Source of the DNA: Candidatus Sumerlaeota bacterium
GTDB taxonomy: Bacteria > Sumerlaeota > Sumerlaeia > Sumerlaeales > Sumerlaeaceae
DNA: 64,000 nt
Reading direction: 5' to 3'
Assembly (NCBI GenBank): GCA_017161655.1
Contig: JADFCV010000002.1
Span: 218,778 to 282,777, forward strand
Shown: in pieces, positions 23,753 to 40,433 of the stretch
How the letters are laid out: every line of letters starts with the position of its first letter
How positions within the stretch are numbered: position 1 is the first letter of the stretch
The notes under the pieces: model-generated
Seen by the model: only the letters and a program-made list of their open reading frames with translations
Told to the model about the DNA's origin: nothing
Database searches by the model: none
Made by a program: the position numbers and the translations under genes

Positions 23753-24985
23753 TTATTTGCGCTTGGCAGACTTTGCGTTCTTGGCGGAAGCGGAAGATTT
23801 GTTGGTGCCACTAGAATCCTTAATGTTCCTTGCTGCCGTACCTTTTTTCTCACTTGTGCTAGTTTTTTTTGCACTCACAGACGCCTTTGATGTTGTTTTG
23901 CTGGAGGATTTGACCGAGCTAGTGCTCTTACGTGATGTGCGGGCGTCCGCAACAAGTCGACTGGTTTTCTTCTCCGAGCTCTGACGCCCGCCTCCCAGGT
24001 CTCGCCGGCTAATCACACGTCCCGTTGCATCATAGGTCACTTCTTCATACCGTCGGCCAAACAGCGAGCGTTTCTCAACAACGCGCTTCCTCACAATTGA
24101 CGCGTCAGCAATCATTTGCGCTGCTTCGGCTTGGTCATCCAGAGGAGCAAAGATACTCGTGAAATCCACACTCACGTTACGGGTGGCCCGAAAATAGTTC
24201 AAAATGCCCGTCGCGATCGCCTTGGCCTCCAGCTTGTTATACGCCAGCGACGCAAGCCGCAGATCCTCCTCCGGGTTGCTCATGAACGACGCCTCTACCA
24301 AAGCTGTCGGCATCGATGCCTTCTTGAGAATGCGATACGAGCCTGGCTTTGCCCCGGCACATTGGGTTCCCAGATAACGCGACACTGCCGAAGCTATATT
24401 GTCCGCTAGCGGAGCTGCAGAAGGCATCCCACTGGGGTAAAAAACAAGGGTGTAATTGGTCGATCGGTCACTCGCCTCGTTGTGGTGAATGCTAATGAAA
24501 AGATCGGAATGAGTCGAATTAGCAAGATTGGGGCGGTAATCGAGTTCATCTTGTTTGTTGCCGCAGTTGGTGCATCTATCGTCTGTCGTTCGGGTCATGA
24601 CCACATCCGCGCCCGCAGTTTCCAGATAGTGCTGCAAGATCAAGGCGACACGAAGGTTTACGTCGCTTTCGGTTTGACCCGTGGCTACACCGCGAGTGCC
24701 GCCAGTGTAGAGAATTTTGTCCCATTTCTCCTGCCCGCCGTGTCCGGGATCGATGCAAATGCGAATCCCTTCTAAAGGCTTGTGAGCCGTTGCATACGTG
24801 CTGATGGGAGCACGGCTTGGGGCCGCTATCTGTGGGACAGCGAACTGGGGCTGAAGCAACGCAAGTTCTTTCGCTGATGGGGTGAGTTGGGGCGCCACGC
24901 TAGGCGTGGGCATGGCCAGCGGCATAAACATCGCTGCGGCCACGGCTCCAGCGAGCATAACTTTCCACAGGCGCATGGCTAACAT
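23753..24985 (-). CDS. N-acetylmuramoyl-L-alanine amidase (Amidase_3/AmiC-type) with Lys/Ser-rich disordered C-terminal tail
   Basis: Signal peptide MLAGAVAAAMFMPLAMP. Catalytic core ICIDPGHGGQEKWDK...GADVVMTRTTD...FISIHHNEA. The last ~75 aa are K/S/T-rich low complexity. Confidence 0.75.
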   Translation of the reverse strand: MLAMRLWKVMLAGAVAAAMFMPLAMPTPSVAPQLTPSAKELALLQPQFAVPQIAAPSRAPISTYATAHKPLEGIRICIDPGHGGQEKWDKILYTGGTRGVATGQTESDVNLRVALILQHYLETAGADVVMTRTTDDRCTNCGNKQDELDYRPNLANSTHSDLFISIHHNEASDRSTNYTLVFYPSGMPSAAPLADNIASAVSRYLGTQCAGAKPGSYRILKKASMPTALVEASFMSNPEEDLRLASLAYNKLEAKAIATGILNYFRATRNVSVDFTSIFAPLDDQAEAAQMIADASIVRKRVVEKRSLFGRRYEEVTYDATGRVISRRDLGGGRQSSEKKTSRLVADARTSRKSTSSVKSSSKTTSKASVSAKKTSTSEKKGTAARNIKDSSGTNKSSASAKNAKSAKRK

Positions 24986-27937: not shown

Positions 27938-28027
27938 GGTGGGATGGCCGAGTGGTTTAAGGCAGCGGTCTTGAAAACCGCCAGGGGCGCAAGCTCCTCG
28001 TAGGTTCGAATCCTACTCCCACCGCCA
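27938..28027 (+). tRNA. tRNA-Ser (anticodon UGA), 90 nt with long variable arm
   Basis: GGTGGGATGGCCGAGTGGTTTAAGGCAGCGGTCTTGAAAACCGCCAGGGGCGCAAGCTCCTCGTAGGTTCGAATCCTACTCCCACCGCCA. Acceptor stem 7 bp, anticodon loop CT-TGA-AA, T-arm GGTTCGAATCC, 3' CCA. Confidence 0.9.
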
Positions 28028-28049
28028 CTGTTTTCTGGGGGAATATCTC

Positions 28050-28292
28050 ATGACTCTTGACGAACTTCTCCAGTGGCGCACCGTCAACGGTCACAGAGTT
28101 CTGCGATTTCTCAAGCAGCACCGCGAGGTTGCCGGTGTTCATTACATGACCACGGAAGACGATCAAGCCTATATCGAATTTGTCATAAAGCCTTGGGGAG
28201 ATTTGCTAACTCTCGAAGGAGAAGTGAGCGCAGCGTTTCCAGATGTTCCTTGGCAGATTATCGAGCCTGACGTCCAAATTGAAGAAGATTGA
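28050..28292 (+). CDS. Small acidic hypothetical protein (80 aa)
   Basis: ORF directly after tRNA-Ser with no recognisable motif. Coding status is uncertain. Confidence 0.3.
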   Translation: MTLDELLQWRTVNGHRVLRFLKQHREVAGVHYMTTEDDQAYIEFVIKPWGDLLTLEGEVSAAFPDVPWQIIEPDVQIEED

Positions 28293-28352
28293 AAACGAAA
28301 GAGGCGACGGAGACTCTCCGCCGCCTCACTGATGCTCGCCTCCAGGTCGGCC

Positions 28353-30332
28353 TTAGTAGCCTTCTGTCGGATTTACCCCGTATTTTGCTGCTGGATTGGC
28401 CCACCTGAGAAGACCCTGTTCTCTCGCCTTAAGCAACAAGTCGCACCGCGCAGCTTCTTCATTTTCCGTTGCCATATCAGTCTGCAATCGCTGGCGCACT
28501 TGTTCAAATGCTGGCGGTTCGCCTTCCCACCGTTCCTCAAGTTTGACCACGACAAACGTATTTCCAAACTGGCGCACTTCGCTGAGTTCCCCAGCTTTTA
28601 ACCAACTTGCTACCGCGCCAAACATTCGGCCGGCGGGATCGCTGAGATGCGCTAAAACGGATCGTTCGACAAGTCCGCCTGAAGAAGCTCGGTTGTCTTC
28701 CGAAAGCTCCCGCGCAAGCTTCTCAATGTTTTCACCAGCAAGGATGCGTTTGCGAATCTCCTCAGCCCTTTGCTTAGCAGCCTTTCGCGCTTCATCGAGG
28801 GACATCCCGGCGCTGGTAGGTTTCGCATTGACGCTGATGATATAGCCGCGTCCTTCCGGCAACCGCATGAGGTTTTTGCGCTCCTCATAAGCCTTTTTCA
28901 ACAAGGCTTCCGTCACCGGATATTTCTCAGCAATGTAGGAGGACAAAATTTTCTTCATGCGAGCACGCTTTCCTGCCCACTCAAGGTCGCGCGCAACGCG
29001 TGGGTCTTTGTCCACACCGCTTTCCAGGGCCCAGTAAATTGCTGCAAGCTCGTTTGCAACTTCGTCAAAAAGCATCGCCAAAGTCTGCGTGCTCTGGGCA
29101 CGGGTGCGGTAAGCAGCAGTGAATCGCGGGCCGTATACCTCCTCGATTTGTCGCAGGGTCCAGATGTCGTCCTTGATCTTTACTGCTGGTACGTCGCTGG
29201 ATAGACTGTCGGCTTTGGAGACATCGAAGAGTACCGTCACTCCCAGTTTCTCCTTGGTGCTTTTCACACCCTCCTGCCATTTCTTACGCACCATTTGAAC
29301 CTGGAGCGATCGCGGCAGGATACGGCTGGTGATGAGCTCCTCGGTTGTCGGGACGTATGTCGTGAGGCGGTCAGCGCAATACATCAGGTGAAGCCCATGA
29401 CTCGTCTCCAGGATTTCAGAAACCTGTCCTGGCTTGAGGTCGAATAAGGCATTTTCGAGAGCAAGATTCATGGGTTTGGCCTCGGGGCCAATCGGCATTC
29501 GTCTGCTGACCCATCCAATGTCCCCACCGACTTTGCCGCTGGCTGCCTCGGAATACTGCCGTGCCAGCAGGGAGAACGACGTCCCCGCGTCAGCCTGCTT
29601 TTTAACTTCTGTCATCCGTTTCCTCACAGCCTCGGTGCTGCTTGTCGGAATGTCCTTTGAAACCTGCATGAAGAGGTGAAAGGCATGAACTTGCTCAGGA
29701 CGCGTAAATCGTTCCGCATTTTCCCGCGTCCACGCATCCATCTCCGCTTTTGTTGGCGATGTTTCCGATTCGAGTTTCGCGCGCAACCCTTGTTTCAGCA
29801 CTGCTAATTCCTGGAAACTTGTATAGGGGATGGGCACGGCAGGTTTTGGGGTCTTCTGCGCTATGTCAGGAATGAGCTCCTCAATAATCTCTTGTAGCAC
29901 AAAATCTTGTAGGAGCTCGTGTAGGTGTTTTTCACTCCGGCCCCCGCCCTCAAGGTAATCTACCAGGTCGCAGTATGTCGTAAACGCATCTTCACGCAGC
30001 TTTTTCCCTTTCACCACAGCCAGAAGAAATTGGCCCGGGGTCCCCTCACCCGGCAGAGGCTCAGGGGGGCGCTTAGCCTGCCGCACGACAGCGGTCGTCG
30101 GAGTGACTTTCTGCTGAACTTTACTTGGCTTCGCTTTGGGGGATTTTCGATCGATGGGAGCTTTAGTGTCGGCTGCGAAGCTTCGACCTGAAAGCCCAAA
30201 ACACGCAACCACCAGCAATCCAAAAAGTGATGAGAAAAGCACCGCTCTTTTCGTCGAGAAGCATCTCGCTGCGTAGATCATCAGAGAACCTCCTGGTATA
30301 AACATCGATTGTGTTTGTCGCGGAACGCTCAA
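28353..30332 (-). CDS. Periplasmic chaperone / peptidyl-prolyl isomerase, PpiD/SurA-like, with C-terminal parvulin domain
   Basis: 659 aa. N-terminal signal/anchor LFSSLFGLLVVACFGLSG, long chaperone-like middle, C-terminal ARELSEDNRASSGGLVERSVLAHLSDPAGRMFGAVASWLKAGELSEVRQFGNTFVVVKL (PpiC-type). Confidence 0.6.
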   Translation of the reverse strand: MSVPRQTQSMFIPGGSLMIYAARCFSTKRAVLFSSLFGLLVVACFGLSGRSFAADTKAPIDRKSPKAKPSKVQQKVTPTTAVVRQAKRPPEPLPGEGTPGQFLLAVVKGKKLREDAFTTYCDLVDYLEGGGRSEKHLHELLQDFVLQEIIEELIPDIAQKTPKPAVPIPYTSFQELAVLKQGLRAKLESETSPTKAEMDAWTRENAERFTRPEQVHAFHLFMQVSKDIPTSSTEAVRKRMTEVKKQADAGTSFSLLARQYSEAASGKVGGDIGWVSRRMPIGPEAKPMNLALENALFDLKPGQVSEILETSHGLHLMYCADRLTTYVPTTEELITSRILPRSLQVQMVRKKWQEGVKSTKEKLGVTVLFDVSKADSLSSDVPAVKIKDDIWTLRQIEEVYGPRFTAAYRTRAQSTQTLAMLFDEVANELAAIYWALESGVDKDPRVARDLEWAGKRARMKKILSSYIAEKYPVTEALLKKAYEERKNLMRLPEGRGYIISVNAKPTSAGMSLDEARKAAKQRAEEIRKRILAGENIEKLARELSEDNRASSGGLVERSVLAHLSDPAGRMFGAVASWLKAGELSEVRQFGNTFVVVKLEERWEGEPPAFEQVRQRLQTDMATENEEAARCDLLLKAREQGLLRWANPAAKYGVNPTEGY

Positions 30333-30340
30333 TATAAAAC

Positions 30341-31414
30341 TTAGCGCCGCTTGCCACGCCCAGCTTTCGCGCGTGTTTTCGCTCGTGCCTTCTGATCCTT
30401 TTTCGTTTGGGGCTTTTGCGCTGCTGTTTTGGCCTTCTTGCGTTTTTTCTCGGCAGCACCTGATTTTTTTCGGCTAGCTGCCATCACTTTGGCTTTTTCC
30501 TTTGCCACCTTCTTCGCTTTGGGCTTTGCTGCGACTTTTGCCTTAGCTGCCTTCTTGGTCTTTTCGACGTCCTTTGTTTCTGATTTCCGCGGGCGACCAC
30601 GCTTCTTCGGTGCAGCTGGTTCTACTGCTGCCGTAACTTCTGTCTTCCGCGGACGCCCTCGTTTTCTCGGCGTGGGTGGTTGTGAGGGCTGGGCACCAGT
30701 TTCGCTTTTGCGCGGTCTCCCGCGGCGTCGCTTAGGCGCAATTTCTTCCGGTTCTTCGTCTAGTTTCTCTTCGATTGCAGCTATTCTCTCGTCCGCAGCC
30801 ACACTTTCCTTCTCTTCGAGCGCACCGGCCTGTTCTTGCGCTTGTTCCTCCTCAGGGCCAATCTCAGCCTCAGCGGCAGCACGTTCGCTTTCCCACTGTT
30901 CGGGTGGAATGCGGATGAAATCGGTTTCCACTAATTTTTCGAGGGCATCCTTGAGCTGATCAAAGACCCGTTTGAATGTGTCCATCGTCCCACCCATGGG
31001 ATCGGGAATCTGCACGTCCTTCCCATGGTAGCCAACGTACTCTTTGAGTAGGAAGGTTTTCCCCCGCGCCACATCGCTCTCGCGGATGGCTTTCTGAACA
31101 TGAAGCGAGGACATGCCAAGGATGAGGTCTGCTTCCTCAAGCATGTGCACCTTCATGGGACGAGAGCGATGGCGGCTGATGTCCACGCCCTCTTCTCTGA
31201 GAAGAAGTTCAGCTTCTGGGGTAGGCAAGAGACCGGTTGGTGTCATCACGCCGGCCGTTGAAATCTCAATCCAATCGATTCCCCGTTCGTGAAGTAGCTT
31301 TTTCAAATATCCTTCAGCCATCGGGCACCGGCAGTTGTCGCCAGTGTCCAGGAGCAACAGTTTTTTCTTCCGAACGCCAGGCTTCAGCTGGTTGTTCAAG
31401 TGTTTTCCCTCCAA
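30341..31414 (-). CDS. Fusion protein: YwlE-type low-molecular-weight phosphatase-like domain with nucleophile Cys replaced by Asp, acidic linker, three AT-hook motifs, and a histone-H1-like Lys/Ala-rich tail
   Basis: The N-terminal domain aligns to B. subtilis YwlE: LLLLDTGDNCRCPMAEGY vs IIFVCTGNTCRSPMAEAL, and TFLLKEYVGYHGKDVQIPDPMGG vs VFTLKEYVTGSHGDVLDPFGG. The tail carries PKRRRGRPRKSE, PRKRGRPRKTE and KKRGRPRKSE (GRP-core AT-hooks), then KKAAKAKVAAKPKAKKVAKEKAK. The start codon is TTG in the DNA. Confidence 0.65.
   Translation of the reverse strand: MEGKHLNNQLKPGVRKKKLLLLDTGDNCRCPMAEGYLKKLLHERGIDWIEISTAGVMTPTGLLPTPEAELLLREEGVDISRHRSRPMKVHMLEEADLILGMSSLHVQKAIRESDVARGKTFLLKEYVGYHGKDVQIPDPMGGTMDTFKRVFDQLKDALEKLVETDFIRIPPEQWESERAAAEAEIGPEEEQAQEQAGALEEKESVAADERIAAIEEKLDEEPEEIAPKRRRGRPRKSETGAQPSQPPTPRKRGRPRKTEVTAAVEPAAPKKRGRPRKSETKDVEKTKKAAKAKVAAKPKAKKVAKEKAKVMAASRKKSGAAEKKRKKAKTAAQKPQTKKDQKARAKTRAKAGRGKRR
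30575..30736 (-). repeat. Intragenic coding tandem repeats encoding the three (K/R)RGRPRK(S/T)E AT-hook units
   Basis: Three imperfect direct repeats of about 60 nt are visible in the DNA (gcggacgccctcgttttctcggcgt / cgcgggcgaccacgcttcttcggtg, etc.). They correspond to aa 227-280 of the protein. Confidence 0.6.
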
Positions 31415-31507
31415 GCAAAAAGGTCACAAAAATCGATTCTAACATGATCTTCGCGACCTCGGCAGCCACTCGTGCAAGAATTTTTTGCTAGGATGGGACC
31501 CAAAAAT

Positions 31508-31924
31508 TTAAGCCACAGCACCGAGTTTTGCTTTTCCCATGAGTTGCTGCATAGCCTCCTCAAAAAAGGGCTTTTCAATGAGATCTACGGCCCCAGCGGA
31601 AAGCGCCGTTACCCACAGCTCCTCGTCGCCCACATCCGTGACGACGGCGCAGATCACATCTTTCCTTTCACCGAGAATCTCATCGATCAGTTGGGCTACA
31701 TCCGCGCAAGTCTCACCCGCATCAATCAAGACGAGGTCAACCGCTTCCTGTTCGACGACGTTGTGAGCCTCATCCGGCTGGGAAGCTAACCGATATTGCA
31801 CCGGAATCCCAACCTTTTCCCCTGCACAGCGCGCTAAGCGTTCAGCGAGCTCTTTGTCATTGCTCACTACGAGAGCACGCAATGCATTCCCATGCGACCG
31901 CGTCAAACCGTTTGCACCCAGCAT
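31508..31924 (-). CDS. Stand-alone response-regulator receiver (CheY-like REC) protein
   Basis: 138 aa. beta1 ALVVSND, phospho-acceptor Asp in DLVLIDAG, Thr in AVVTD, Lys-Pro in IEKPF. No output domain. Confidence 0.6.
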   Translation of the reverse strand: MLGANGLTRSHGNALRALVVSNDKELAERLARCAGEKVGIPVQYRLASQPDEAHNVVEQEAVDLVLIDAGETCADVAQLIDEILGERKDVICAVVTDVGDEELWVTALSAGAVDLIEKPFFEEAMQQLMGKAKLGAVA

Positions 31925-32188
31925 TGGCGTGACCTCCTAACCTTCTACTTGACCCACTTTTTGGACACCATTTTTCTACGTCAGGTTTCGTAAGGAAAGT
32001 GACACGCACGTGAATTTGCGCGATTGGAACGATTGAACTTATGAGCGCGCCACACATTTGCTGCAACGCGCCTGCCAGGCTTAGTGGTCGGACACGAAAG
32101 CTGATTCTCAAAAAGAGCATCCACCTTTGCAGCGGAAGTCCAAGAGGCGCGCAGCGTCGCCCCTCTCACTCTCCTTCGTTCATCGCGA

Positions 32189-32947
32189 ATGTGGTGCTTC
32201 ACGCTTGAAACCGAACACCCAGCGGCCCCGAACTGTATGCGTCAAGGCGTGAAGACTAGGATTGCCATATATGATTTTGACACCTGTCGCCCAGCCCTTG
32301 AAGCCCATGCCCAAGAGTTGGCGGAGTCGGCAGAAGGACTTGCCCGCTGGGCATCATTCCGGGATTTTATTCAAACCTTTGCTCGTGAGGCTGTAGACAA
32401 TCGCACGTGCGTTATTGGTCAGTTTGATCCTGATGTTGTTTTCGCCTTTGTCCCGGCAGAAGGTTTGGGAGCCAATGATCGCGAAGCTGTGTGGGTCTCG
32501 GTACTTGACCATGCACGTCGACTGATGGGAGGAACCGCCGCTCCCTACTGGCTTGATTTTCTTGACGCGATTGCTCCTGAGGGAATCCCGAAATCACCCA
32601 TTCTCCAAAATTCTTGGCTGGATCCCCACCTTGCACAGGAACTCCAATCGTCGCAGGTTGTGATTTGGGTCTTTTTCAATGCGAGACGTTTTCTGGAAGC
32701 CGTCATTCAGCCACAGCTATCCAAGCGTGGCTTCATGATTTTGCCAGACGAATCTGATGAACAATTGAGCGAACTACGCGTGAAACATCCTGGTTGTCCG
32801 AACAAGGTTTTTCGCATTCCTTGGAACGTGTGGTTTCGCGAAATGGTTGGTGGCGGCTTCAACATGCTCTATCTCATGGCTCTCGTGGCAATCTACTTGC
32901 AGAAACTCGAGCACGCGGTGACAGACAGTGGGCAAAGCGAGCAGTAA
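32189..32947 (+). CDS. Hypothetical protein, first gene of the long co-directional array
   Basis: 252 aa with no recognisable motif (possible alternative start at 32237, MRQGVKTR). Its 3' end overlaps the next ORF by 20 nt. Confidence 0.4.
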   Translation: MWCFTLETEHPAAPNCMRQGVKTRIAIYDFDTCRPALEAHAQELAESAEGLARWASFRDFIQTFAREAVDNRTCVIGQFDPDVVFAFVPAEGLGANDREAVWVSVLDHARRLMGGTAAPYWLDFLDAIAPEGIPKSPILQNSWLDPHLAQELQSSQVVIWVFFNARRFLEAVIQPQLSKRGFMILPDESDEQLSELRVKHPGCPNKVFRIPWNVWFREMVGGGFNMLYLMALVAIYLQKLEHAVTDSGQSEQ

Positions 32948-35225
32948 GCGGCGCTATACGGACGTCGCTCTTTACCGGCGTCTCTTTGGCTATCTCCACG
33001 GCACACGAATGATTGTGGCGCTTCTGGTCGTGTGCATGGTCCTTGAGGGGGCATTCACGGTTCTCACAATTAGCCTTGTCCGGCCGACGCTCGACCTCCT
33101 GGTCAAGAACCGTATTTCCGATTCCTCCAAGGTCCAGCAGAAGGGTGTTTTCGAGATCGGTGCACCTGTGAAGCTACCTGACAACGTTGTGGCAGTGCGC
33201 GCCGTGGGAGAGCTGATTTCCTCACGTGCTGCAGACGAACTGCGTGATCTCTTTGAAGCCGTCATTCGGCCACCCACTCGACGGCTCGTTGTTGATCTTT
33301 CTCAGGTCACGGCCGTCAGCGATGTGGTCTGGGCCCAGTTCCTCTTTGCGAAGCTTCTTACCACTCAAGGCATCAAATTGGATGTCATCGTAGCCGCAAA
33401 CCTCACTTGGCCACCAACCCTTGGTTCGGACGAAAATTTCCGTTTCCTTTCCAGCCTTGATGAGGAGGCCACGCGCATCCTTGCGACTCAAATCGCTCAG
33501 GTCCCCTTGCCCAAGTTGAGCAAGCCGAAAAAAGAAGGCTTTGTTGCCAACCTAAAGCGGCGTGCCGGCGAGGCGGTGATGCCGTACCTTCAAAAGATTC
33601 AAGAATACGTCATGGTGAGCAGCGCCAACAAATTTCGGGTTCTTGCTGGCATTCTGGCGCTGTTAGTCATCTCAGCATTGTGTATGGTGATCGCTTCTTT
33701 TGGCGTCGGCTACCTCAGCGCCTACATGGCCAATCTCTGCGTGACGCGTCTGCGTAATCACGTGATGCGCCACATGCTCCATCTCGATATGGAATTTTTT
33801 AATCGCTACTCAGTTGGCAACCTGATGTCCACTGTGACCCAGGACGTAGCAGCAGTTTCTGGGGCGATCGACATTCTCTTTTCCAACGTTCTAAAAACTC
33901 CAATCACTGTGGCAATGCTCATCGTGGCCATGTTCTTTGTGTCGCCCAAACTAACCCTCTACAGCCTCACGGTGGCGCCTCTCATTGGTCTTCTGCTTTA
34001 CGGAATCGGCCGCCGCGTGCGCAAGGTCAGTCAGCGAATCCAGGAGTTGCGTGCCGTTCTGTCCTCAATTGCCCAGGAATCCTTTGCCGGGATTCGTGTC
34101 GTGAAAGGTTTCAACATGGAAGACCGGCAAGCGGATCGCTACGAGAAGGAAAGCTGGACCGCTTTCAAGCGTGGCCTAAAAACCGTTGTGGCCGAAGAGC
34201 TTGGCACCGGCCTTACGGCCTTCCTTGGTGTTTTCACCGTCGCCGCCATGATTCTCCTTGGTGGCTTTTATGTTCTGCAGACCCGCGAGCTTAGCGGCTC
34301 GGAGTTTGTCCTATTCGTTGTCTTTCTCTCGCAAGTCTTTCGTCCCCTTAAAGGAAGCAGCCGTGTGATTTCGAAAATCCAACGCGGCATGGCCGGAAGC
34401 GACCGCGTGTTCCGGGTCCTGGACCAGCAACCAAATATCAAAGATGATCCTTCGGCTCCCCCGATTGCCGCGCCTCAGCGCGAGATTCGCTTCGAGCATG
34501 TCTGGTTCCGATATCATTCCTCCTCTGACTTTGTGCTGCGCGATATTGATGTGACAATCGAACCAGGCAAAGCACTTGCAATCGTTGGCGAAACGGGGTC
34601 GGGAAAGACCACGCTGGTGAGTCTCTTACCACGTTTCTTTGACCCCAACCAAGGCCGAATCCTTTTCGACGACGTGGACATTCGGACCGTCCGGCTCCGT
34701 TCCCTCCGCGATCTGATTGCCCTCATATCGCAGGACGTTGTTCTTTTCGACGACACAGTCGCCAACAACATCGCCTACGGAATGCCAGCCGACACACCCA
34801 TGGAGCAAATCATTGCGGCGGCCAAAGCGGCAAATGCCCACGACTTCATCATGCGGTTACCAAAGGGGTATGACACGCTTGTCGGAGGTAGGGGAGTCCG
34901 TCTTTCAGGGGGCGAACGCCAGCGCATTTCCATCGCGCGTGCGTTCCTAAAAAACGCTCCCATTCTCATCCTCGACGAGGCAACAAGCCAGCTCGATGCC
35001 GAGACAGAGTCACTGATTCAGCAATCATTGCTCGAAATCATGAAAGACCGCACGGTCTTCGTGGTGGCCCATCGCCTTGCAACCATCTTGCACTGCCACG
35101 AAATTATCGTGCTTGATGCCGGTCGCATAGTCGAGCGAGGGACCCACGACGAGCTCCTTCAACTGGGCGGGCGATATGCGCGATACTATCAACTTCAGTT
35201 TGCCACCGCTGGCGAAAGCTCATGA
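32928..35225 (+). CDS. ABC exporter (fused TMD-NBD, MsbA-like) with a ~170-aa STAS-like domain inserted between TM1 and TM2
   Basis: 765 aa. TM1 MIVALLVVCMVLEGAFTVLTISLV. Then VVAVRAVGELISSRAADELRDLFEAVIRPPTRRLVVDLSQVTAVSDVVWAQFLFAKLLTTQGIKLDVIVAANL, matching the STAS/anti-sigma-antagonist pattern (L.G.L......L...vvDls.V.f.ds.g...l........g..l.l). Then TM2-6 and an NBD (GETGSGKTT; LSGGERQRISIARAF; ILILDEAT). Confidence 0.7.
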   Translation: MGKASSKRRYTDVALYRRLFGYLHGTRMIVALLVVCMVLEGAFTVLTISLVRPTLDLLVKNRISDSSKVQQKGVFEIGAPVKLPDNVVAVRAVGELISSRAADELRDLFEAVIRPPTRRLVVDLSQVTAVSDVVWAQFLFAKLLTTQGIKLDVIVAANLTWPPTLGSDENFRFLSSLDEEATRILATQIAQVPLPKLSKPKKEGFVANLKRRAGEAVMPYLQKIQEYVMVSSANKFRVLAGILALLVISALCMVIASFGVGYLSAYMANLCVTRLRNHVMRHMLHLDMEFFNRYSVGNLMSTVTQDVAAVSGAIDILFSNVLKTPITVAMLIVAMFFVSPKLTLYSLTVAPLIGLLLYGIGRRVRKVSQRIQELRAVLSSIAQESFAGIRVVKGFNMEDRQADRYEKESWTAFKRGLKTVVAEELGTGLTAFLGVFTVAAMILLGGFYVLQTRELSGSEFVLFVVFLSQVFRPLKGSSRVISKIQRGMAGSDRVFRVLDQQPNIKDDPSAPPIAAPQREIRFEHVWFRYHSSSDFVLRDIDVTIEPGKALAIVGETGSGKTTLVSLLPRFFDPNQGRILFDDVDIRTVRLRSLRDLIALISQDVVLFDDTVANNIAYGMPADTPMEQIIAAAKAANAHDFIMRLPKGYDTLVGGRGVRLSGGERQRISIARAFLKNAPILILDEATSQLDAETESLIQQSLLEIMKDRTVFVVAHRLATILHCHEIIVLDAGRIVERGTHDELLQLGGRYARYYQLQFATAGESS

Positions 35226-35256
35226 AAAATAGCCAGAAGGCATTCACTTATCGGTC

Positions 35257-36510
35257 TTGCCGGTTGCAATCAAGCATCACTCACAGATAGCGAAAGCCAT
35301 AAATATGGTGCAATTCGACGATATTCGCTTCGACTGTACGCATTACACAGGCTACAAGCCATGCCGATTTGGTAACGAATGCAAAGGTTGCTGGCACTAC
35401 GAGCCACGTGAGCCTTATTCCGCCGAGCCCGCCCAACCTCTCCGTACGGATGCGCCAGCCCGTTCGACGAACGACACCTCTCCCTTTCGCATTCTCATCA
35501 TCAAAACGGGGGCAATGGGTGACGTCCTCCGGACGACGACGCTTCTTGCTCCGTTACTTCGTCACTACCAGGGAGCAGAGATTACCTGGGTTACAGATGC
35601 TTCTGCTGTTCCTCTCTTGGTTCACAATCCCAAAATACACCGTCTGCTCACTCTCTCCGAAAAAACGAGAGAAAAACTCGCAAATGAGACATTTGATCTC
35701 TTGCTCAATTTCGAGAAAGATCCTGCTCCGTTAGCGCTAGCTGGCCTCGTCCCCGCGCGTTGCCATCGCGGCTTTGCTCCAACGCTGTGGAATACGCCAA
35801 CGGTCTTCAATGAAGCCTCGCGCTACGCACTGCTTCTCGGTGTCAGCGATGAATTGAAATTCCGTATTAACACGAAAACATATCCACAAATTGTTTCGGA
35901 AATGGCTGAGCTTTCTTATGCCCGAGATCCTTACGAACTCTATCTCTCGGAGCACGCTGTGGCAAAACGCGAAAAGCTTTGCAACGAATTGGCTCAGCGA
36001 GAGAGACCATGGATAGGGTTGAATACGGGCTGCGGGTCTGTGTTTCGCACGAAACTCTGGCCGTTAGACCGTTGGGTTGAACTGATTCGCGAGCTTCAAG
36101 CGACACTTCCTGCGGCAACCTTGCTTTTGCTCGGCGGTCCGGCCGAACGTGAAATGAATGCTCAGATCTTGCAGCAATGTCCGGGCGTCATTCACACTGG
36201 CTGCGACAATTCGTTAGAAGAGTTCTTCGGCATCGTGGATGCGTGCGACCTAGTTGTCAGCTCCGACAGCTTGGCCATGCACATTGCGATTGCTCTTAAA
36301 AAGCACGTGGTCGCACTATTTGGATCGACCTCTGCAACGGAAATCGACCTGTTCGACCGTGGCGAAAAAGTGGTCACCGACTTCGATTGCAGTCCGTGCT
36401 ACCTCAAGAATTGCGACAAGAACCCCACGTGCATGCAGGCCATGACTGGCCGACGTGTCGCTGAAGCGGTTCTCCGCCAACTTCAGTCCGTGGTGGGGAA
36501 TGCTCAATGA
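35257..36510 (+). CDS. Glycosyltransferase family 9 (ADP-heptose-dependent heptosyltransferase-like) with N-terminal Cys4 motif
   Basis: The GT9 core FRILIIKTGAMGDVLRTTTLLAPL...GLNTGCGS...LLLLGGPAERE begins at ~aa 77. It is preceded by FDCTHYTGYKPCRFGNECKGCWHY (C-x8-C-x5-C-x2-C). The ORF track start is TTG at 35257; the first ATG is 35305. Confidence 0.65.
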   Translation: MPVAIKHHSQIAKAINMVQFDDIRFDCTHYTGYKPCRFGNECKGCWHYEPREPYSAEPAQPLRTDAPARSTNDTSPFRILIIKTGAMGDVLRTTTLLAPLLRHYQGAEITWVTDASAVPLLVHNPKIHRLLTLSEKTREKLANETFDLLLNFEKDPAPLALAGLVPARCHRGFAPTLWNTPTVFNEASRYALLLGVSDELKFRINTKTYPQIVSEMAELSYARDPYELYLSEHAVAKREKLCNELAQRERPWIGLNTGCGSVFRTKLWPLDRWVELIRELQATLPAATLLLLGGPAEREMNAQILQQCPGVIHTGCDNSLEEFFGIVDACDLVVSSDSLAMHIAIALKKHVVALFGSTSATEIDLFDRGEKVVTDFDCSPCYLKNCDKNPTCMQAMTGRRVAEAVLRQLQSVVGNAQ

Positions 36511-38210
36511 TCGCGATGAGAGAAAAGGGGGCATCTTCTGACAAGGTGCCGTTTCCCTCATCTCTTATCGTGCTACGTGGCACACTTCCCGCATTCCTAG
36601 TTTTTTTGGCATCTCTCTGGCTTCTTTCCTTGGGTCAATTCACAGTGCGGCGCATCACGACTGGCCTCGAGCATCCTTACGTCCAGCTCGACAATGAAGA
36701 AGGTGCACTACTGGCGCAGACGCTTGAGCTGCGCGGCGGCACATTACCTTATCGTCCCCTTGTGGATTATCCTTACATCGTTGGGACCTATCCCCCCCTT
36801 TACCTGGCAGCAGCTGCTTTTTGCACGACGGCGGAGACGCCCTCCTTCTATGGGGGGAGACTCGTATCCGCGATTGCCGCGGCGATGTGTCTAGTGGCTT
36901 TGGCAGTAACGGGATGGCGCTTGGGGCGCTCGTTCTTGTCAGCAGTCGTTGCACCGTCTCTTTTCTTGGGGACGTTTGAGGTTTACAGTTGGTCCCCCTA
37001 TTTCCGTACGGATTTTCTGGCGCTTGCTTTTTCGCTGCTAGGACTCTGCGTTGGGCTCTCTTTTTTCCAGAAACGCGTGGCTCTCGTTTTTTCTGCGCTT
37101 CTGTTCGCATGCGCTTTTTTTACAAAACAAACGTCCATCGCTGCCCCATTAGCGTTGTCTGTTGCATTGCTGGGTCGGAACCGCCGAGCTGTCGCGTTGT
37201 TTGTTTTCACCTACCTCAGCGCAGTCGCGATCCCCTTTGCTCTACTCACTTTGCTCACTCGCGGCCAGTTCTTTGTTCACACAGTGCTCTACAATGCTAA
37301 CCGCATGAACTGGCCTGATCTGATTGTATGGGCCAAACATGTTTGGCGTTTCTATCCGTGGCTCCTGGGTCTTGTTGTTGCCGCGCTGGTGTTGCCGCAC
37401 CTCGAAGAATTAAGCGGCAAGTCATCTTCGATAGACCCGTCTAAGAATGACACCAGCGATGCATCAACTCATCCCGCCGGTGACGCAGAATTGTTATCGG
37501 TTACTCCGCCATCTTGCGCTCGTAGCAAGGATTCTCAAGGCGTGCTGAGCAGTGCCGCAGCGATTTATTTCCTCTTCTCTCTTATAAATTTCGTTGCGAT
37601 AGCAAAGGCGGGCAGCGCCGAAAACTATCTCCTGGAACCTCTCGCAGCTGCTGCTCTCCTTGTAGGCACGGCGTTAGGTCGCTTTGCGCGTCCTTCCCCA
37701 TCTGCAAATGACCATTCCTTGCACGTCCAGCGCGTCCTTACTGTATTGTTCCTCTGCCATGCCGTCCACGTTGCTCACTGGGCGCCCGTCATGTTTTCAC
37801 CAGCCAAGCAACCGACGTCCGAAGATTTCAAACTCGCAGCAGTTCTTACGCAGCGTCTGCGCTCGGTCGCCGATCCCGTCATTAGCGAGCTTGCGGGCTA
37901 TACGATTTTCGCGGGGAAAAAAGTGCTCTTTCAGCCTTTTATTATGAGTGAGTTGGCACGGCAGGGTCGCTGGGACGAAAGTCACTTCGTGCGCGACATT
38001 GCCAACCACCGTTTCTCTTTAATTGCCACGACCGTCGATCTTACCACCAACGCCTACTCGGATGCTTTCACACCTGCCATGCGTGAGGCGATTCGGACGC
38101 ATTACGAACGTGCCGAAAAGTTTGAGTCCGGTCAGCTTTGGCGGTATTATCTTTTTTGTCCCAAACGCGATCCTGTCCAGCCGATCACCGGGAAGAAACA
38201 AAGCGGATGA
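36507..38210 (+). CDS. Polytopic membrane protein resembling GT-C-fold glycosyltransferases (ArnT/PMT/GT39/GT87-like)
   Basis: 567 aa with at least 10 predicted TM helices. First loop DYPYIVGTYPPLY, FTKQTSIAAPL. Soluble C-terminal domain of ~130 aa. The start overlaps the GT9 stop (ATGA). Confidence 0.4.
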   Translation: MIAMREKGASSDKVPFPSSLIVLRGTLPAFLVFLASLWLLSLGQFTVRRITTGLEHPYVQLDNEEGALLAQTLELRGGTLPYRPLVDYPYIVGTYPPLYLAAAAFCTTAETPSFYGGRLVSAIAAAMCLVALAVTGWRLGRSFLSAVVAPSLFLGTFEVYSWSPYFRTDFLALAFSLLGLCVGLSFFQKRVALVFSALLFACAFFTKQTSIAAPLALSVALLGRNRRAVALFVFTYLSAVAIPFALLTLLTRGQFFVHTVLYNANRMNWPDLIVWAKHVWRFYPWLLGLVVAALVLPHLEELSGKSSSIDPSKNDTSDASTHPAGDAELLSVTPPSCARSKDSQGVLSSAAAIYFLFSLINFVAIAKAGSAENYLLEPLAAAALLVGTALGRFARPSPSANDHSLHVQRVLTVLFLCHAVHVAHWAPVMFSPAKQPTSEDFKLAAVLTQRLRSVADPVISELAGYTIFAGKKVLFQPFIMSELARQGRWDESHFVRDIANHRFSLIATTVDLTTNAYSDAFTPAMREAIRTHYERAEKFESGQLWRYYLFCPKRDPVQPITGKKQSG

Positions 38211-39106
38211 GGCACGATTCCTCACATCTTGTAGGACGCCTCCTCATGCTGACCTCTGCTCTTTGCTTCGGAGTTATGGCTCTTCTCACCCGCATTCTTG
38301 CTTCTCTTCCCAGTGCCGAGAAGGTGTTCTTCCGAAGTTTTATCGGTCTCCTTCTCACAGCTGCTGCGTTCGTTGTCTTCTGTCGGCCTTTACCTCGGCC
38401 ACGCAATTATCGAGGGCTAATATGGCGCGGGATCTTTGGCAGTTTGGCGCTGCTCTGTTACTTTTACGCTATCGACCGTTGCGGCCTGCCGAAAGCCACA
38501 CTCTATTGTTACACCTATCCCGTGTGGGCGACACTTCTGGCATGGGCCGACTTGGGAGAGCGGCCATCGTCGCATGCCATTCTGGCCACTCTCGTTGCTG
38601 TGCTTGGCGTTGTTTTGACCCTGGAATTTCATGCAGACGCGCTTCTATCATTTTCGCATGCGGATGTCATTGGCCTACTGGCTGGGGCCTTTACGGGGGC
38701 TGCGATTGTCAGCGTTCGGCGCCTTCGTCAGGTTGAGTCTTCATGGTGGATTGTCATCTTCTTCACTTCCATCGGAGCTCTTCTCAGTGCCCCATTTCTT
38801 TTTGTTTCGTTCAAGCCGCCGGCGATGCTTGAGTGGCTAGGACTCATCGCACTTGCAGCGGCCGCCGCTGTGGCTCAGCTTCTGATGACAAAAGCCTATC
38901 GCACGCTCACCGCTGCAGAGGGAAGTTTGCTCTCGCTCACTGTGGTGCCATGGAGCTCCCTCTTTTCTGTCATTTTTCTAAGCGAAGTGCCACCGCTTCG
39001 CTTTTGGATAGGCGCTGCGGTTGTGTTCCTCGCAGTTGGGTGGCTCGTCCTTCACCAGACGAGCACACGTCCTGCCACACTGCCAGAGTCGCCGCTCGTC
39101 GACTGA
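38207..39106 (+). CDS. EamA/DMT-superfamily transporter (10-TM drug/metabolite exporter family)
   Basis: Two EamA-like halves (LALLCYFYAIDRCGLPKATLYCYTYPVWATLLAW; LLSLTVVPWSSLFSVIFLSE). The ATG at 38207 overlaps the upstream stop (ATGA). The ORF track lists a longer form from 38138. Confidence 0.7.
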   Translation: MRHDSSHLVGRLLMLTSALCFGVMALLTRILASLPSAEKVFFRSFIGLLLTAAAFVVFCRPLPRPRNYRGLIWRGIFGSLALLCYFYAIDRCGLPKATLYCYTYPVWATLLAWADLGERPSSHAILATLVAVLGVVLTLEFHADALLSFSHADVIGLLAGAFTGAAIVSVRRLRQVESSWWIVIFFTSIGALLSAPFLFVSFKPPAMLEWLGLIALAAAAAVAQLLMTKAYRTLTAAEGSLLSLTVVPWSSLFSVIFLSEVPPLRFWIGAAVVFLAVGWLVLHQTSTRPATLPESPLVD

Positions 39107-39194
39107 AATTTCACCAGTCAACCTTGAGAAAACTATGCACGTCTGAACCTGTGCAAAGCCAGATGCCTTTGCCTTGAGCGACTGTGAGGTGGAA

Positions 39195-40433
39195 ATGGTG
39201 AGTCACAATCATGGGCCAGTGGTTTCCTTGCAACCGCAGCTCCGGCGGCTTGTGGAGCAAGGAGAAATAGGAATTCCTGAACTTGCGGATGCGATCCTCG
39301 ACGGCGCGGAAAGCGTCGCCGCAAGCGATGTCCACATCGAGGCCCATGCCCAGTCCTACGTGGTACGTTTTCGTGTAGATGGAATGCTGCTCGATGTCAT
39401 TTCGATTCCCAAGTCACTCGGGGAAAACCTCATTGGCCGCCTGAAGATGATGGCCCGGGTCCTTACTTACAGGAAACGTGTGCCGCAGGACGGACGGGTA
39501 GAAGCTGGAGGAATCGGGATTAGGGCGGCGTTCATGCCAACCTTGCACGGTGAAAAGGCTGTCCTTCGGCTGCCTGTCGCTAACGTTCCGCAACGTCTTC
39601 ATGAGCTAGGAATGACTGATGACGACCGCACATGCCTAGAACGCGAGCTGATCGGCGGGCACGGAGTGATTTTTCTCACTGGCCCTTCCAGTAGCGGCAA
39701 GAGCACCACCATTTATGCTGCTCTCCGCTACATTCTTGAGCACTCGCCCCTGATACCAAATATTCTCACACTCGAAGATCCCATCGAGCAGGAGGTTCCA
39801 GGCGTCAATCAGACCCAAATCGACCCAGCTGGTGGGCTGACCTTTCCTGCCGGGCTTCGGACTATACTGCGGATGGATCCTGACGTCATTGTCGTGGGGG
39901 AGATTCGCGACGAAGAGACCGCGCGCATTGCTGTCCACGCTGGACTAAGTGGCCATAGAGTCTTAACCACCATTCACTCCGGATCCTGCGCACAGGTCTA
40001 TGCCCGCCTCCTTCACATGGGGATCGAGCCGTTTCTTCTCGCAACCGCAGTCTCTCTCATCATGGCCCAGCGCCTGGCGCGGCGCGTGTGCTCTTCTTGT
40101 GCTCAGCCACGTCCACTCGACCAGTGGGAAACCCGCCTCCTATCCGGGGAAGATTCGAGTGATTTTACCGGTGTGTCAGCCCCAGGGTGCCCAGACTGTT
40201 TCGGGACGGGTGCTCGTGGCCGATTGGCCATATTTGAATTGGCGGTCCCTTCTGCCGCAGTACGTCAAGCTGTCCTGGAGTGCGCGCCAGCACCTTTGAT
40301 CGCGGAGCTTCTCGAGGCGGCGGGAATGCGTCCTTTGCGCGTTGCTCTGCGTAACGCTGTCGTTGCCCACCAAGTTAGCATCGAAGAAGCAATTCGCCTG
40401 ACTGGAGGAATTAGGGATGAACGGGCCAGCTAA
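39195..40433 (+). CDS. GspE/PilB/ComGA-family secretion ATPase, minimal form (no N1 domain) with C-terminal tetracysteine motif
   Basis: SDVHIEAH...VRFRVDGML, RLKMMARVLTYRKRVPQDGRV. Walker A variant LTGPSSSGKSTTIYAAL, VGEIRDEETARIAVHAGLSGHRVLTTIHS, and CSSC...CPDC. ATG at 39195 preceded by GAGGTGG; the ORF track start is TTG at 39174. Confidence 0.8.
   Translation: MVSHNHGPVVSLQPQLRRLVEQGEIGIPELADAILDGAESVAASDVHIEAHAQSYVVRFRVDGMLLDVISIPKSLGENLIGRLKMMARVLTYRKRVPQDGRVEAGGIGIRAAFMPTLHGEKAVLRLPVANVPQRLHELGMTDDDRTCLERELIGGHGVIFLTGPSSSGKSTTIYAALRYILEHSPLIPNILTLEDPIEQEVPGVNQTQIDPAGGLTFPAGLRTILRMDPDVIVVGEIRDEETARIAVHAGLSGHRVLTTIHSGSCAQVYARLLHMGIEPFLLATAVSLIMAQRLARRVCSSCAQPRPLDQWETRLLSGEDSSDFTGVSAPGCPDCFGTGARGRLAIFELAVPSAAVRQAVLECAPAPLIAELLEAAGMRPLRVALRNAVVAHQVSIEEAIRLTGGIRDERAS

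Follow-up and report, generated by a model that had tools for sequence, protein, structure and literature searches.

YwlE, known from Bacillus subtilis and Geobacillus stearothermophilus, has the fold of protein tyrosine phosphatases of low molecular weight (LMW-PTP), and its Thr11 is critical for arginine phosphatase activity (PMC7772506). Replacement of the nucleophilic Cys by Ser (C7S) leaves YwlE and DARP turnover-dead, and the crystal structure of YwlE C7S (PDB 4kk4) contains a phosphoserine at the active site. This phosphoserine means that a non-thiol side chain at this position can accept a phosphoryl group from a phosphoramidate. The subject of this article is a YwlE-like protein encoded on the minus strand of a 64,000-nucleotide stretch of DNA from a Candidatus Sumerlaeota bacterium (contig JADFCV010000002.1, positions 218,778 to 282,777). 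This whole stretch is termed the window, and coordinates below are positions within it. In the window protein, the nucleophilic Cys of the YwlE-type domain is replaced by Asp, and the domain is followed by an acidic linker, three AT-hooks, and a histone-H1-like end. With a probability of roughly 45%, the Asp-type domain is a nucleic-acid-tethered module that binds, traps, or reads phosphate groups without thiol chemistry.

YwlE is the best match to the window protein (33–34% identity; template modeling (TM) score 0.89–0.91). The two share the length of the P-loop, the Cys at its position 6, its Arg, the PMAEG start of a helix, and the DP loop. The window protein differs from YwlE in its Asp for Cys, Asn for Thr11, and Cys for Ser14, in its extension of ~190 amino acids of acidic, AT-hook, and H1-like sequence, and in its position upstream of a parvulin-type peptidyl-prolyl isomerase (PPIase). 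Relatives that retain the nucleophile (Cys-type) are like YwlE in their CTGNTCRS P-loop and their ywlE-rpiB-glyA neighborhood. Changes to a non-thiol residue at the same position have been made in the laboratory in YwlE C7S (4kk4), DARP C7S, and PTP1B C215D, the last of which sets the precedent for Cys-to-Asp. In the window protein, by contrast, the change arose in nature long ago, and P-loop positions 4, 5, and 8 have been substituted along with it. Nature's counterparts of YwlE C7S, which is turnover-dead and forms phosphoserine, are the Ser- and Ala-type members of its family.

Eukaryotic pseudophosphatases (STYX-type proteins and the D2 domains of receptor protein tyrosine phosphatases) likewise combine a substituted catalytic residue with a conserved fold under purifying selection and a proposed reader or trap role (for the D2 domains, see PMC7772506). 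The window protein differs from them in having the LMW-PTP class II fold, in being bacterial, and in its predicted nucleic-acid-binding tail, and its inactivity is hypothetical. In Drosophila, LMW-PTPs that were once called pseudophosphatases have been shown to be active (PMC7772506).

The tail of the window protein has its own counterparts. An acidic segment followed by RGRP hooks forms the DNA-binding domain of Myxococcus xanthus CarD, in which a disordered acidic segment and hooks are likewise attached to a folded bacterial domain (PMC4374960). The folded partner is an LMW-PTP here but a CarD_CdnL_TRCF RNA polymerase-binding domain in CarD, which belongs to another phylum. Moreover, the window protein combines hooks with an H1-like end, and the likeness of the two tails is one of motif and composition only. 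The title of Garcia-Heras 2009, as cited in PMC4374960, describes an H1-like domain as functionally equivalent to the CarD domain, and the tails of orthologues of the window protein, which alternate between Lys/Ala/Pro-rich H1-like and AT-hook forms, parallel the HMGA/H1 equivalence in that title. The chlamydial proteins Hc1 and HC2 have the same Lys/Ala-rich basic low complexity, but they are stand-alone nucleoid proteins, while here such a sequence is the appendage of an enzyme fold. An earlier reading of this DNA by a model from the letters alone (the sequence-only reading) did not recognize the domain combination as a described one. In agreement with this, a literature search found no description of an LMW-PTP with an AT-hook/H1-like architecture, of bacterial LMW-PTP pseudophosphatases, or of this protein in Sumerlaeota genome studies.

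An Aspartate in Place of the Catalytic Cysteine

The gene and the parts of its phosphatase domain are as follows, with the basis of each in parentheses.

30341..31399, minus strand: gene for the Asp-variant LMW-PTP/AT-hook/H1-like protein, 352 amino acids from TTG at 31399 (open reading frame (ORF) list, Logan contigs, N-termini of homologues)
30932..31345, minus strand: LMW-PTP fold domain, LMWPc, PF01451 (Pfam, AlphaFold2, Foldseek)
31325..31348, minus strand: P-loop D-T-G-D-N-C-R-C (HMMER alignments, codons, clade conservation)
31157..31171, minus strand: H-R-S-R-P motif, of which H-R-S is invariant family-wide (alignments A1 and A2, column statistics)
30986..31003, minus strand: D-loop DPMGGT with the general-acid Asp (alignments, column statistics)

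Both profile and structure comparisons place the protein in the LMW-PTP family, which bears out the YwlE-like fold proposed in the sequence-only reading. The Pfam LMWPc model matches amino acids 24–161 at E=1.1e-25 (90.9 bits against a cut-off of 23.2), covering profile positions 6–143 of 144. In a phmmer search against all PDB chains, 4egs ranks first at 3.5e-22, B. subtilis YwlE matches at 1.6e-19, and several B. subtilis and Geobacillus YwlE entries fall between 1.6e-19 and 7.8e-18. An AlphaFold2 model built from a 56-sequence alignment has a predicted local distance difference test score (pLDDT) of 93–98 over the domain. Foldseek aligns this model with 4egs and YwlE at TM scores of 0.89–0.93 and a root-mean-square deviation of 1.3–1.5 Å. 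When Wzb is included, the scores span 0.83–0.93, with deviations of 1.3–1.8 Å for the best matches, and the domain has the four-stranded parallel sheet of the flavodoxin-like fold.

In every printed HMMER alignment with a PDB chain (YwlE, 4egs), the query segment LLLLDTGDNCRCPMAEG pairs with LFVCTGNTCRSPMAEG, which places the Asp opposite the nucleophilic Cys. Direct reading of the codons at 31348–31325 gives GAC ACT GGC GAC AAC TGC CGG TGC, and two base changes separate GAC from a Cys codon. The Cys-to-Asp change of the sequence-only reading is upheld by alignment and codons alike, and the HMMER comparison puts no Cys at the nucleophile position. The P-loop also has Asn at position 5, which governs specificity for phospho-arginine (pArg), and Cys at position 8, which is normally Ser or Thr. 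The loss of the position 5 Thr, a determinant of arginine phosphatase activity, had been missed earlier.

The C-X5-R-S/T signature of a competent LMW-PTP fails at two of its four positions, namely the nucleophilic Cys and the Ser/Thr at position 8. The P-loop Arg at position 7 (R29 in the 357-residue numbering of the longest ORF) is present and invariant. The general-acid Asp is also kept, as had been stated before. Its DP pair at 31003–30998 (D138-P139 in the same numbering) aligns with the DP loop of YwlE and is invariant across the family, in all classes. The DPMG sequence is invariant in Asp, Cys, and Ser forms, and the residue after it is often Cys in the Cys/Ser clade and Gly in the window protein. 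At position 5, Asn replaces the Thr expected of a YwlE-type arginine phosphatase. The absence of the Cys, the Ser/Thr, the position 5 Thr, and the ywlE neighborhood (discussed later) means that annotation as a protein arginine or tyrosine phosphatase is unwarranted. The domain has one hallmark of a pseudoenzyme, in that an essential catalytic residue has been lost from a fold under purifying selection. To call the Asp-type protein a "pseudo"phosphatase is nevertheless hypothetical, because a Cys-to-Asp change can leave residual or altered activity. NCBIfam models do not separate Asp-type from Cys-type proteins, and all of their matches lie far under the cut-offs of 157–247 bits.

Nucleophile Classes and Ancestry of the Family

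The family of the window protein was collected by a word-indexed search and an exhaustive phmmer search of 1.84 billion representatives. It comprises 141 YwlE-like clusters, of which 103 have an intact N-terminus and 38 are N-terminally truncated gene calls. Neighbor-joining (NJ) bootstraps support its monophyly at 99.5%, and all named members are labeled Candidatus Sumerlaeota, Sumerlaeia, Sumerlaeaceae, BRC1, or plain "bacterium". The intact clusters fall into four nucleophile classes.

Cys: 45 of 103 clusters, mostly CTGNTCRS
Ser: 18 of 103 clusters, STGNTCRS and STGDTCRS
Ala: 1 of 103 clusters, ATGDTCRS
Asp: 39 of 103 clusters, with 29 DTGDNCRC, 4 DTGDICRC, and 6 minor variants

The substitution proposed for the window protein thus recurs among its orthologues, and the identical P-loop occurs in 29 independent clusters. 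Ser and Ala replacements are found at several places in the tree (P0035, P0038, P0043, P0048, P0050, P0051, P0053, P0060, P0061, P0066, P0070, P0073, and P0146; L087, L106, L111, L113, and L121). The nucleophile has been replaced repeatedly in this family, with Ser, Ala, or Asp taking the place of Cys. The small DTGDICRC clade may or may not be a second, convergent origin of Asp: in NJ trees built without the P-loop columns (200 bootstraps), monophyly of the Asp class has 16% support, and the deep nodes are short.

Members of all four nucleophile classes end in a basic C-terminal tail (median net charge +18 to +31), which is missing from the YwlE homologues retrieved from outside the Sumerlaeota. 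The joining of a YwlE-like domain to an H1-like tail is therefore ancestral to the Sumerlaeota family. Because canonical CTGNTCRS members carry the tail as well, it was not recruited by an already dead enzyme. This bears on the sequence-only reading, which proposed a DNA-binding factor that had co-opted an inactive phosphatase fold. Binding by the tail is a reasonable expectation, but the idea of a special co-option falls away, as the tail is ancestral and present in canonical members. The AT-hooks are a later elaboration of this tail: [RK]GRP motifs are found in 8 of 39 Asp-type tails, in 1 of 18 Ser-type tails, and in none of the 45 Cys-type tails. The nearest relatives of the window protein are P0127 (79% identity), L090 (80%), P0128/L092 (71–73%), and P0129/L094 (71–72%), and these have the same order of acidic linker, one to three hooks, and basic end.

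The metagenome loci came from a scan with the Asp-only alignment A2. A profile scan of genome contigs with the mixed alignment A1 returned mainly generic LMW-PTPs, with one Sumerlaeota locus (L001) among the matches listed, and a metagenome scan with the single window protein gave no match.

Two long proteins outside the window, P0135 (1679 amino acids) and P0201 (2197 amino acids), have a phosphoenolpyruvate-utilizing, pyruvate phosphate dikinase-like N-terminus (with a GGGLLSHAAITTRELG motif) followed by two to five tandem LMWPc-like domains. Their P-loops degrade along the array (VCAGNACRSP, ACSFNTSRSP, VGAGYTDRSR, ACTHNTSRSP, and VCAANHSRSP). In these arrays, nature may have produced a further range of LMW-PTP folds, some active and some inactive.

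Conservation of the Aspartate Site

Column statistics and alignment A2 reveal how closely the altered site has been kept. In the DTGDNCRC clade, D18, T19, G20, N22, C23, and R24 (352-residue numbering, which is used from here on) are invariant, D21 is present in 96% of sequences, and C25 in 92% (otherwise Gly, Ala, or Ser). H77-R78-S79 and D133-P134-M135-G136 are invariant in every class. The Asp clade is set apart by T22N, S25C, V46I, and Y142F. Residue 22, the equivalent of Thr11 in YwlE, is Thr in 100% of the Cys/Ser clade and Asn in 100% of the DTGDNCRC clade. In addition, constraint is confined to the Asp clade at 11 positions, and at no position is it confined to the Cys/Ser clade.

The domain is also conserved relative to its surroundings. 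The loci L092 and L093, a close pair from metagenomes, have no differences over 170 domain codons and 11 in the tail (6 synonymous and 5 non-synonymous). Among Asp-type members, identity is 57–80% in the domain compared to 38–66% in the adjacent PPIase. Purifying selection on the Asp clade is strong, and the altered site has been remodeled, not decayed. This constraint, together with the contrast in identity between domain and PPIase, is the signature of a functional site.

The complete lack of differences between the genes of the window and of L081, a Logan contig from another sample, was dropped as evidence of constraint, because a whole 5-kb block is identical. Over window positions 27959–41399, 153 of 13,441 positions differ between the two. 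There are no differences in the block at about 27959–33000, which contains genes for unk236, a response regulator (RR), the LMW-PTP-type protein, and the PPIase, and 1–4.5% in the type II secretion system and EamA genes. The identical block has the look of a recent recombination event or sweep.

The Acidic Linker, AT-Hooks, and H1-Like End

The region after the phosphatase domain contains five features.

30743..30892, minus strand: acidic linker of 50 amino acids, 20 Asp/Glu and 4 Lys/Arg, predicted helical (composition, AlphaFold2)
30701..30733, minus strand: AT-hook 1, KRRRGRPRKSE (Pfam AT_hook)
30638..30667, minus strand: AT-hook 2, RKRGRPRKTE (Pfam AT_hook, best stretch at amino acids 249–259)
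30578..30607, minus strand: AT-hook 3, KKRGRPRKSE (Pfam AT_hook)
30344..30562, minus strand: Lys/Ala-rich histone-H1-like end of 73 amino acids, 33 Lys/Arg and 3 Asp/Glu, predicted disordered (composition, pLDDT <50)

These features agree with the acidic linker, three AT-hooks, and H1-like end described in the sequence-only reading. AlphaFold2 places helices in the linker at residues 171–184 and 187–219 (pLDDT 85–95). Pfam AT_hook (PF02178) matches at 26 bits against a cut-off of 17.4 in three stretches, each with the R-G-R-P core in basic flanks. Hooks 2 and 3 lie within a 60-nucleotide direct repeat of 73% DNA identity. The codons of the three RGRP cores are CGC GGG AGA CCG, CGA GGG CGT CCG, and CGT GGT CGC CCG. 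These synonymous differences mean that the peptide motif has been preserved, and that the repeats do not result from a recent DNA duplication. Acidic linkers with one to three AT-hooks are common to the closest relatives (71–80% identity), and the window protein has three hooks.

The end of the tail has the composition by which H1-like regions are defined, being Lys/Ala-rich, basic, and disordered. The window protein does not match a curated H1-like or HC2 model, and 2 of the 56 aligned family members match Pfam HC2 at E=3e-5. No other real gene in the 64-kb window encodes a similarly Lys/Arg-rich tail, so basic tails do not appear to be general in this proteome. An N-acetylmuramoyl-L-alanine amidase (Amidase_3) ORF at 23753–24985 on the minus strand has a milder, Lys/Ser/Thr-rich basic low-complexity C-terminal tail. 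From these sequence features, it is reasonable to expect that the tail of the window protein binds nucleic acid.

Genomic Context

Three features flank the gene, two downstream and one upstream.

28353..30281, minus strand: double-parvulin PPIase with an N-terminal signal peptide, the downstream neighbor (Pfam Rotamase, two matches)
28301..28327, minus strand: terminator-like hairpin with a 12-bp stem and 9 GC pairs, shortly 3′ of the PPIase stop codon
31508..31924, minus strand: single-domain response-regulator receiver of 138 amino acids, directly upstream on the same strand (Pfam Response_reg)

The PPIase is the most constant neighbor. It lies 3′ of every Asp-type locus with enough downstream sequence (the window and L081–L083, L084, L089, L090, L091, L093, L094, L097, and L100). 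The linked PPIase has ~600–660 amino acids, with a signal peptide at its N-terminus and a pair of parvulin (Rotamase) domains, and the gap between the Asp-type gene and the PPIase gene is 1–60 nucleotides in the three loci with gene calls. The hairpin after the PPIase gene suggests that the two genes probably form one operon. The PPIase is SurA/PpiD-like, and its signal peptide is followed by a mildly basic segment rich in Pro. The linkage of a periplasmic chaperone to a cytoplasmic protein with a putative nucleic-acid-binding role has been kept over deep divergence.

The upstream receiver is less constant. Translated searches (tblastn) find it upstream in L090–L093 and L096 and not in L084, L089, or L097. 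A functional link with this receiver as a core system was considered and rejected, as the arrangement is conserved in the closest sub-clade only. Inspection by eye finds an acceptor-Asp-like LID, a Thr, and a Lys-Pro in the receiver, with N-D and not D-D after strand 1.

Cys-, Ser-, and Ala-type members keep a different setting, the ancestral lptFG-ywlE-rpiB-glyA context. Where flanking sequence suffices, lptFG lies upstream and/or rpiB or glyA downstream in nearly all Cys- and Ser-type loci, and the ywlE-rpiB-glyA part of this context resembles the ywlE region of Bacillus. None of rpiB, glyA, lptFG, or a second LMW-PTP gene is found in the 64-kb window or in the Asp-type loci, so the window gene is outside the ywlE-rpiB-glyA neighborhood. 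From this comparison, the Asp-type gene appears to have moved from an lptFG-ywlE-rpiB-glyA cluster to a site upstream of a periplasmic parvulin PPIase. Among ~17 proteins from metagenome-assembled genomes (MAGs) annotated by the Prokaryotic Genome Annotation Pipeline (PGAP), which were representatives or members of the clusters, no accession block or locus-tag prefix includes both an Asp-type and a Cys/Ser-type member. The match list includes one complete chromosome, of 5.99 Mb, and it has the Cys-type only.

Start Codon and Annotation

The longest ORF at the locus is unbroken and runs from 30341 to 31414 on the minus strand, with a TTG start and 357 amino acids. The tail lies in frame within this single uninterrupted ORF. 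The sequence-only reading took 31414 as the start, which is here moved to the TTG at 31399, most likely the true start, giving 352 amino acids. One feature and several comparisons support the shorter form.

31408..31412, minus strand: GGAGG Shine-Dalgarno-like motif, 8 nucleotides 5′ of the TTG at 31399 (read from sequence)

This motif, the 352-residue calls on Logan contigs, and the N-termini of homologues all favor 31399. In an exact look-up, the identical 352-residue protein was found as called by gene callers on three independent Logan contigs, and the 357-residue product returned no record. The P-loop Asp is residue 15–18 across homologues, which agrees with the shorter start.

Automated annotation has obscured this family. 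In 38 of the 141 family gene calls, the protein begins at the Met of PMAEG and omits the P-loop (P0024–P0027, P0071–P0092, and P0156–P0166), probably because the real starts are TTG or GTG. This means that the identity of the nucleophile is hidden in many automated annotations. PGAP labels Asp-type proteins "hypothetical". An antisense ORF of 176 amino acids (30429–30959, plus strand) overlaps the tail-coding region. Its product is Ala/Ser/Phe-rich, of low complexity, and unsupported, and it is most likely a by-product of biased composition. A promoter scan at the locus, of a kind that is uninformative for the phylum Sumerlaeota, found no sigma-70-like site.

Possible Functions of the Asp-Type Protein

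The proposed binding, trapping, or reader module would work as follows. The well-folded N-terminal YwlE-type domain keeps a phosphate cradle composed of the P-loop backbone, the Arg, the H-R-S motif, and the DP loop, in which the thiol nucleophile has been exchanged for Asp, the pArg-selecting Thr for Asn, and the thiolate-stabilizing Ser for Cys. Such a domain cannot form a cysteinyl-phosphate intermediate. It would probably bind or trap phosphorylated ligands in a manner insensitive to oxidation, and any chemistry would be at most slow or single-turnover. The protein is predicted to be cytoplasmic, with an HMGA/H1-like disordered C-terminal part that would tether it to nucleic acid, DNA being the likeliest partner. 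In AT-rich tracts the AT-hooks would occupy the minor groove, and binding by the Lys/Ala-rich end would be non-specific. As in HMGA-type proteins and CarD, the basic tail may be masked by the acidic linker. A reader or trap role is favored for the non-Cys forms because Ser and Ala variants recur in the family.

Several points weigh against this proposal. Both the binding-module role and the choice of DNA as partner are deduced from sequence. Catalysis that has been kept would account for the invariant general-acid Asp and the near-invariant new Asp, Asn, and Cys no less well than mere binding. With two carboxylates in the P-loop, anions should be bound less strongly, except if the carboxylates are protonated or a metal bridges them. 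Basic Lys/Ala/Pro-rich tails can also bind RNA, polyphosphate, and membranes, and it is not obvious how a nucleoid role would relate to the stable linkage with a periplasmic PPIase. Finally, it is held with moderate confidence that the Asp and Cys/Ser forms are mutually exclusive and lineage-specific, with the Asp-type protein as the sole family member in its genomes, and this exclusivity rests on incomplete MAGs and a word-indexed search.

The alternative that survives best is that D18 is a working nucleophile. It would attack a phosphoramidate (phospho-arginine or phospho-histidine (pHis)) or another activated phosphate, and the labile acyl-phosphate would then hydrolyze. Such a protein would amount to a YwlE that has no thiol, is proof against oxidation, and is tethered to nucleic acid. 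The nearly invariant P-loop, the strictly kept Arg and general-acid DP loop, and the stronger constraint in the Asp clade than in the Cys/Ser clade are all as expected of an enzyme. The C215D mutant of PTP1B is said to keep activity. That mutant has been functionally characterized, according to a reference in PMC3172300; the title of PDB entry 4kk4 indicates that the non-thiol residue of YwlE C7S is phosphorylated; and LMW-PTPs predicted to be pseudophosphatases have proved active (PMC7772506). However, position 5 has Asn or Ile in place of the pArg-selecting Thr, position 8 varies among Cys, Gly, Ala, and Ser within the Asp clade, and a metal-binding constellation of the haloacid dehalogenase or receiver type is not evident. 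Moreover, turnover by the Ser and Ala variants is very improbable, given that C7S is dead, and the family seems on that account to tolerate the loss of catalysis. On balance, an Asp-based enzyme is unlikely. A wider form of the idea holds that the Asp-type protein is a natural carboxylate phosphatase or phosphotransfer protein on the LMW-PTP fold. It would act as an oxidation-proof, chromosome-held eraser of pArg or pHis and as the sole YwlE-type protein of its lineage, and the Ser and Ala forms would be single-turnover traps or readers. In this full form, the idea is quite unlikely.

A further possibility concerns the tail rather than the active site. The tail might not be an anchor to DNA or the nucleoid at all, but a binder of RNA, of tRNA or the ribosome, of polyphosphate, or of acidic membranes, or an appendage for charge or solubility, with a role near ywlE housekeeping (tsaC/rpiB/glyA, t6A). 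Tailed Cys- and Ser-type members do occupy the lptFG-ywlE-rpiB-glyA cluster; LMWPc is often fused to Sua5/TsaC (P0097), and matches of 350–390 amino acids may be similar fusions. Most tails have no AT-hooks and are plain Lys/Ala/Pro or Lys/Ser/Thr low complexity, and tail sequences evolve rapidly. These observations must be set against the canonical RGRP hooks, one to three in number and three in the window protein, which follow an acidic segment in the DNA-binding arrangement of CarD (PMC4374960). The hook peptides have been kept despite synonymous change, and two family tails match the model of the chlamydial histone-like protein HC2. A tail without a DNA or nucleoid role is very unlikely.

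The remaining reading, that the locus is a decaying gene, a sequencing or frame artifact, or a thiol-redox or ArsC-type relative that uses C23 and C25, can point to the missing nucleophile, to weak NCBIfam arsenate-reductase matches of 37–40 bits, and to the PGAP name "hypothetical", but it is close to refuted by the identical protein on three more independent contigs, by the strong constraint on 39 Asp-type clusters, by cut-offs of 174–215 bits for those arsenate-reductase matches together with the replacement of Cys10 by Asp, by sequence and structure matches that are best to YwlE-type proteins and far weaker, with partly truncated overlap, to ArsC, and by the replacement of C25 with Gly, Ala, or Ser within the clade.

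Significance

LMW-PTPs are treated as obligate cysteine enzymes, yet a whole family from an uncultured phylum has swapped the nucleophile for Ser, Ala, or Asp and is strongly conserved. The natural Cys, Ser, Ala, and Asp variants form a compact set for YwlE-type phospho-arginine recognition. After CarD, the family is also a second example from bacteria of AT-hook and H1-like modules that seem able to stand in for one another. If the Asp-type protein is an enzyme, it would represent a natural Asp-based catalyst on a Cys-phosphatase scaffold. If it is a reader, as favored here, it would be a prokaryotic reader of phospho-marks stationed on nucleic acid, and a new kind of nucleoid-associated factor.

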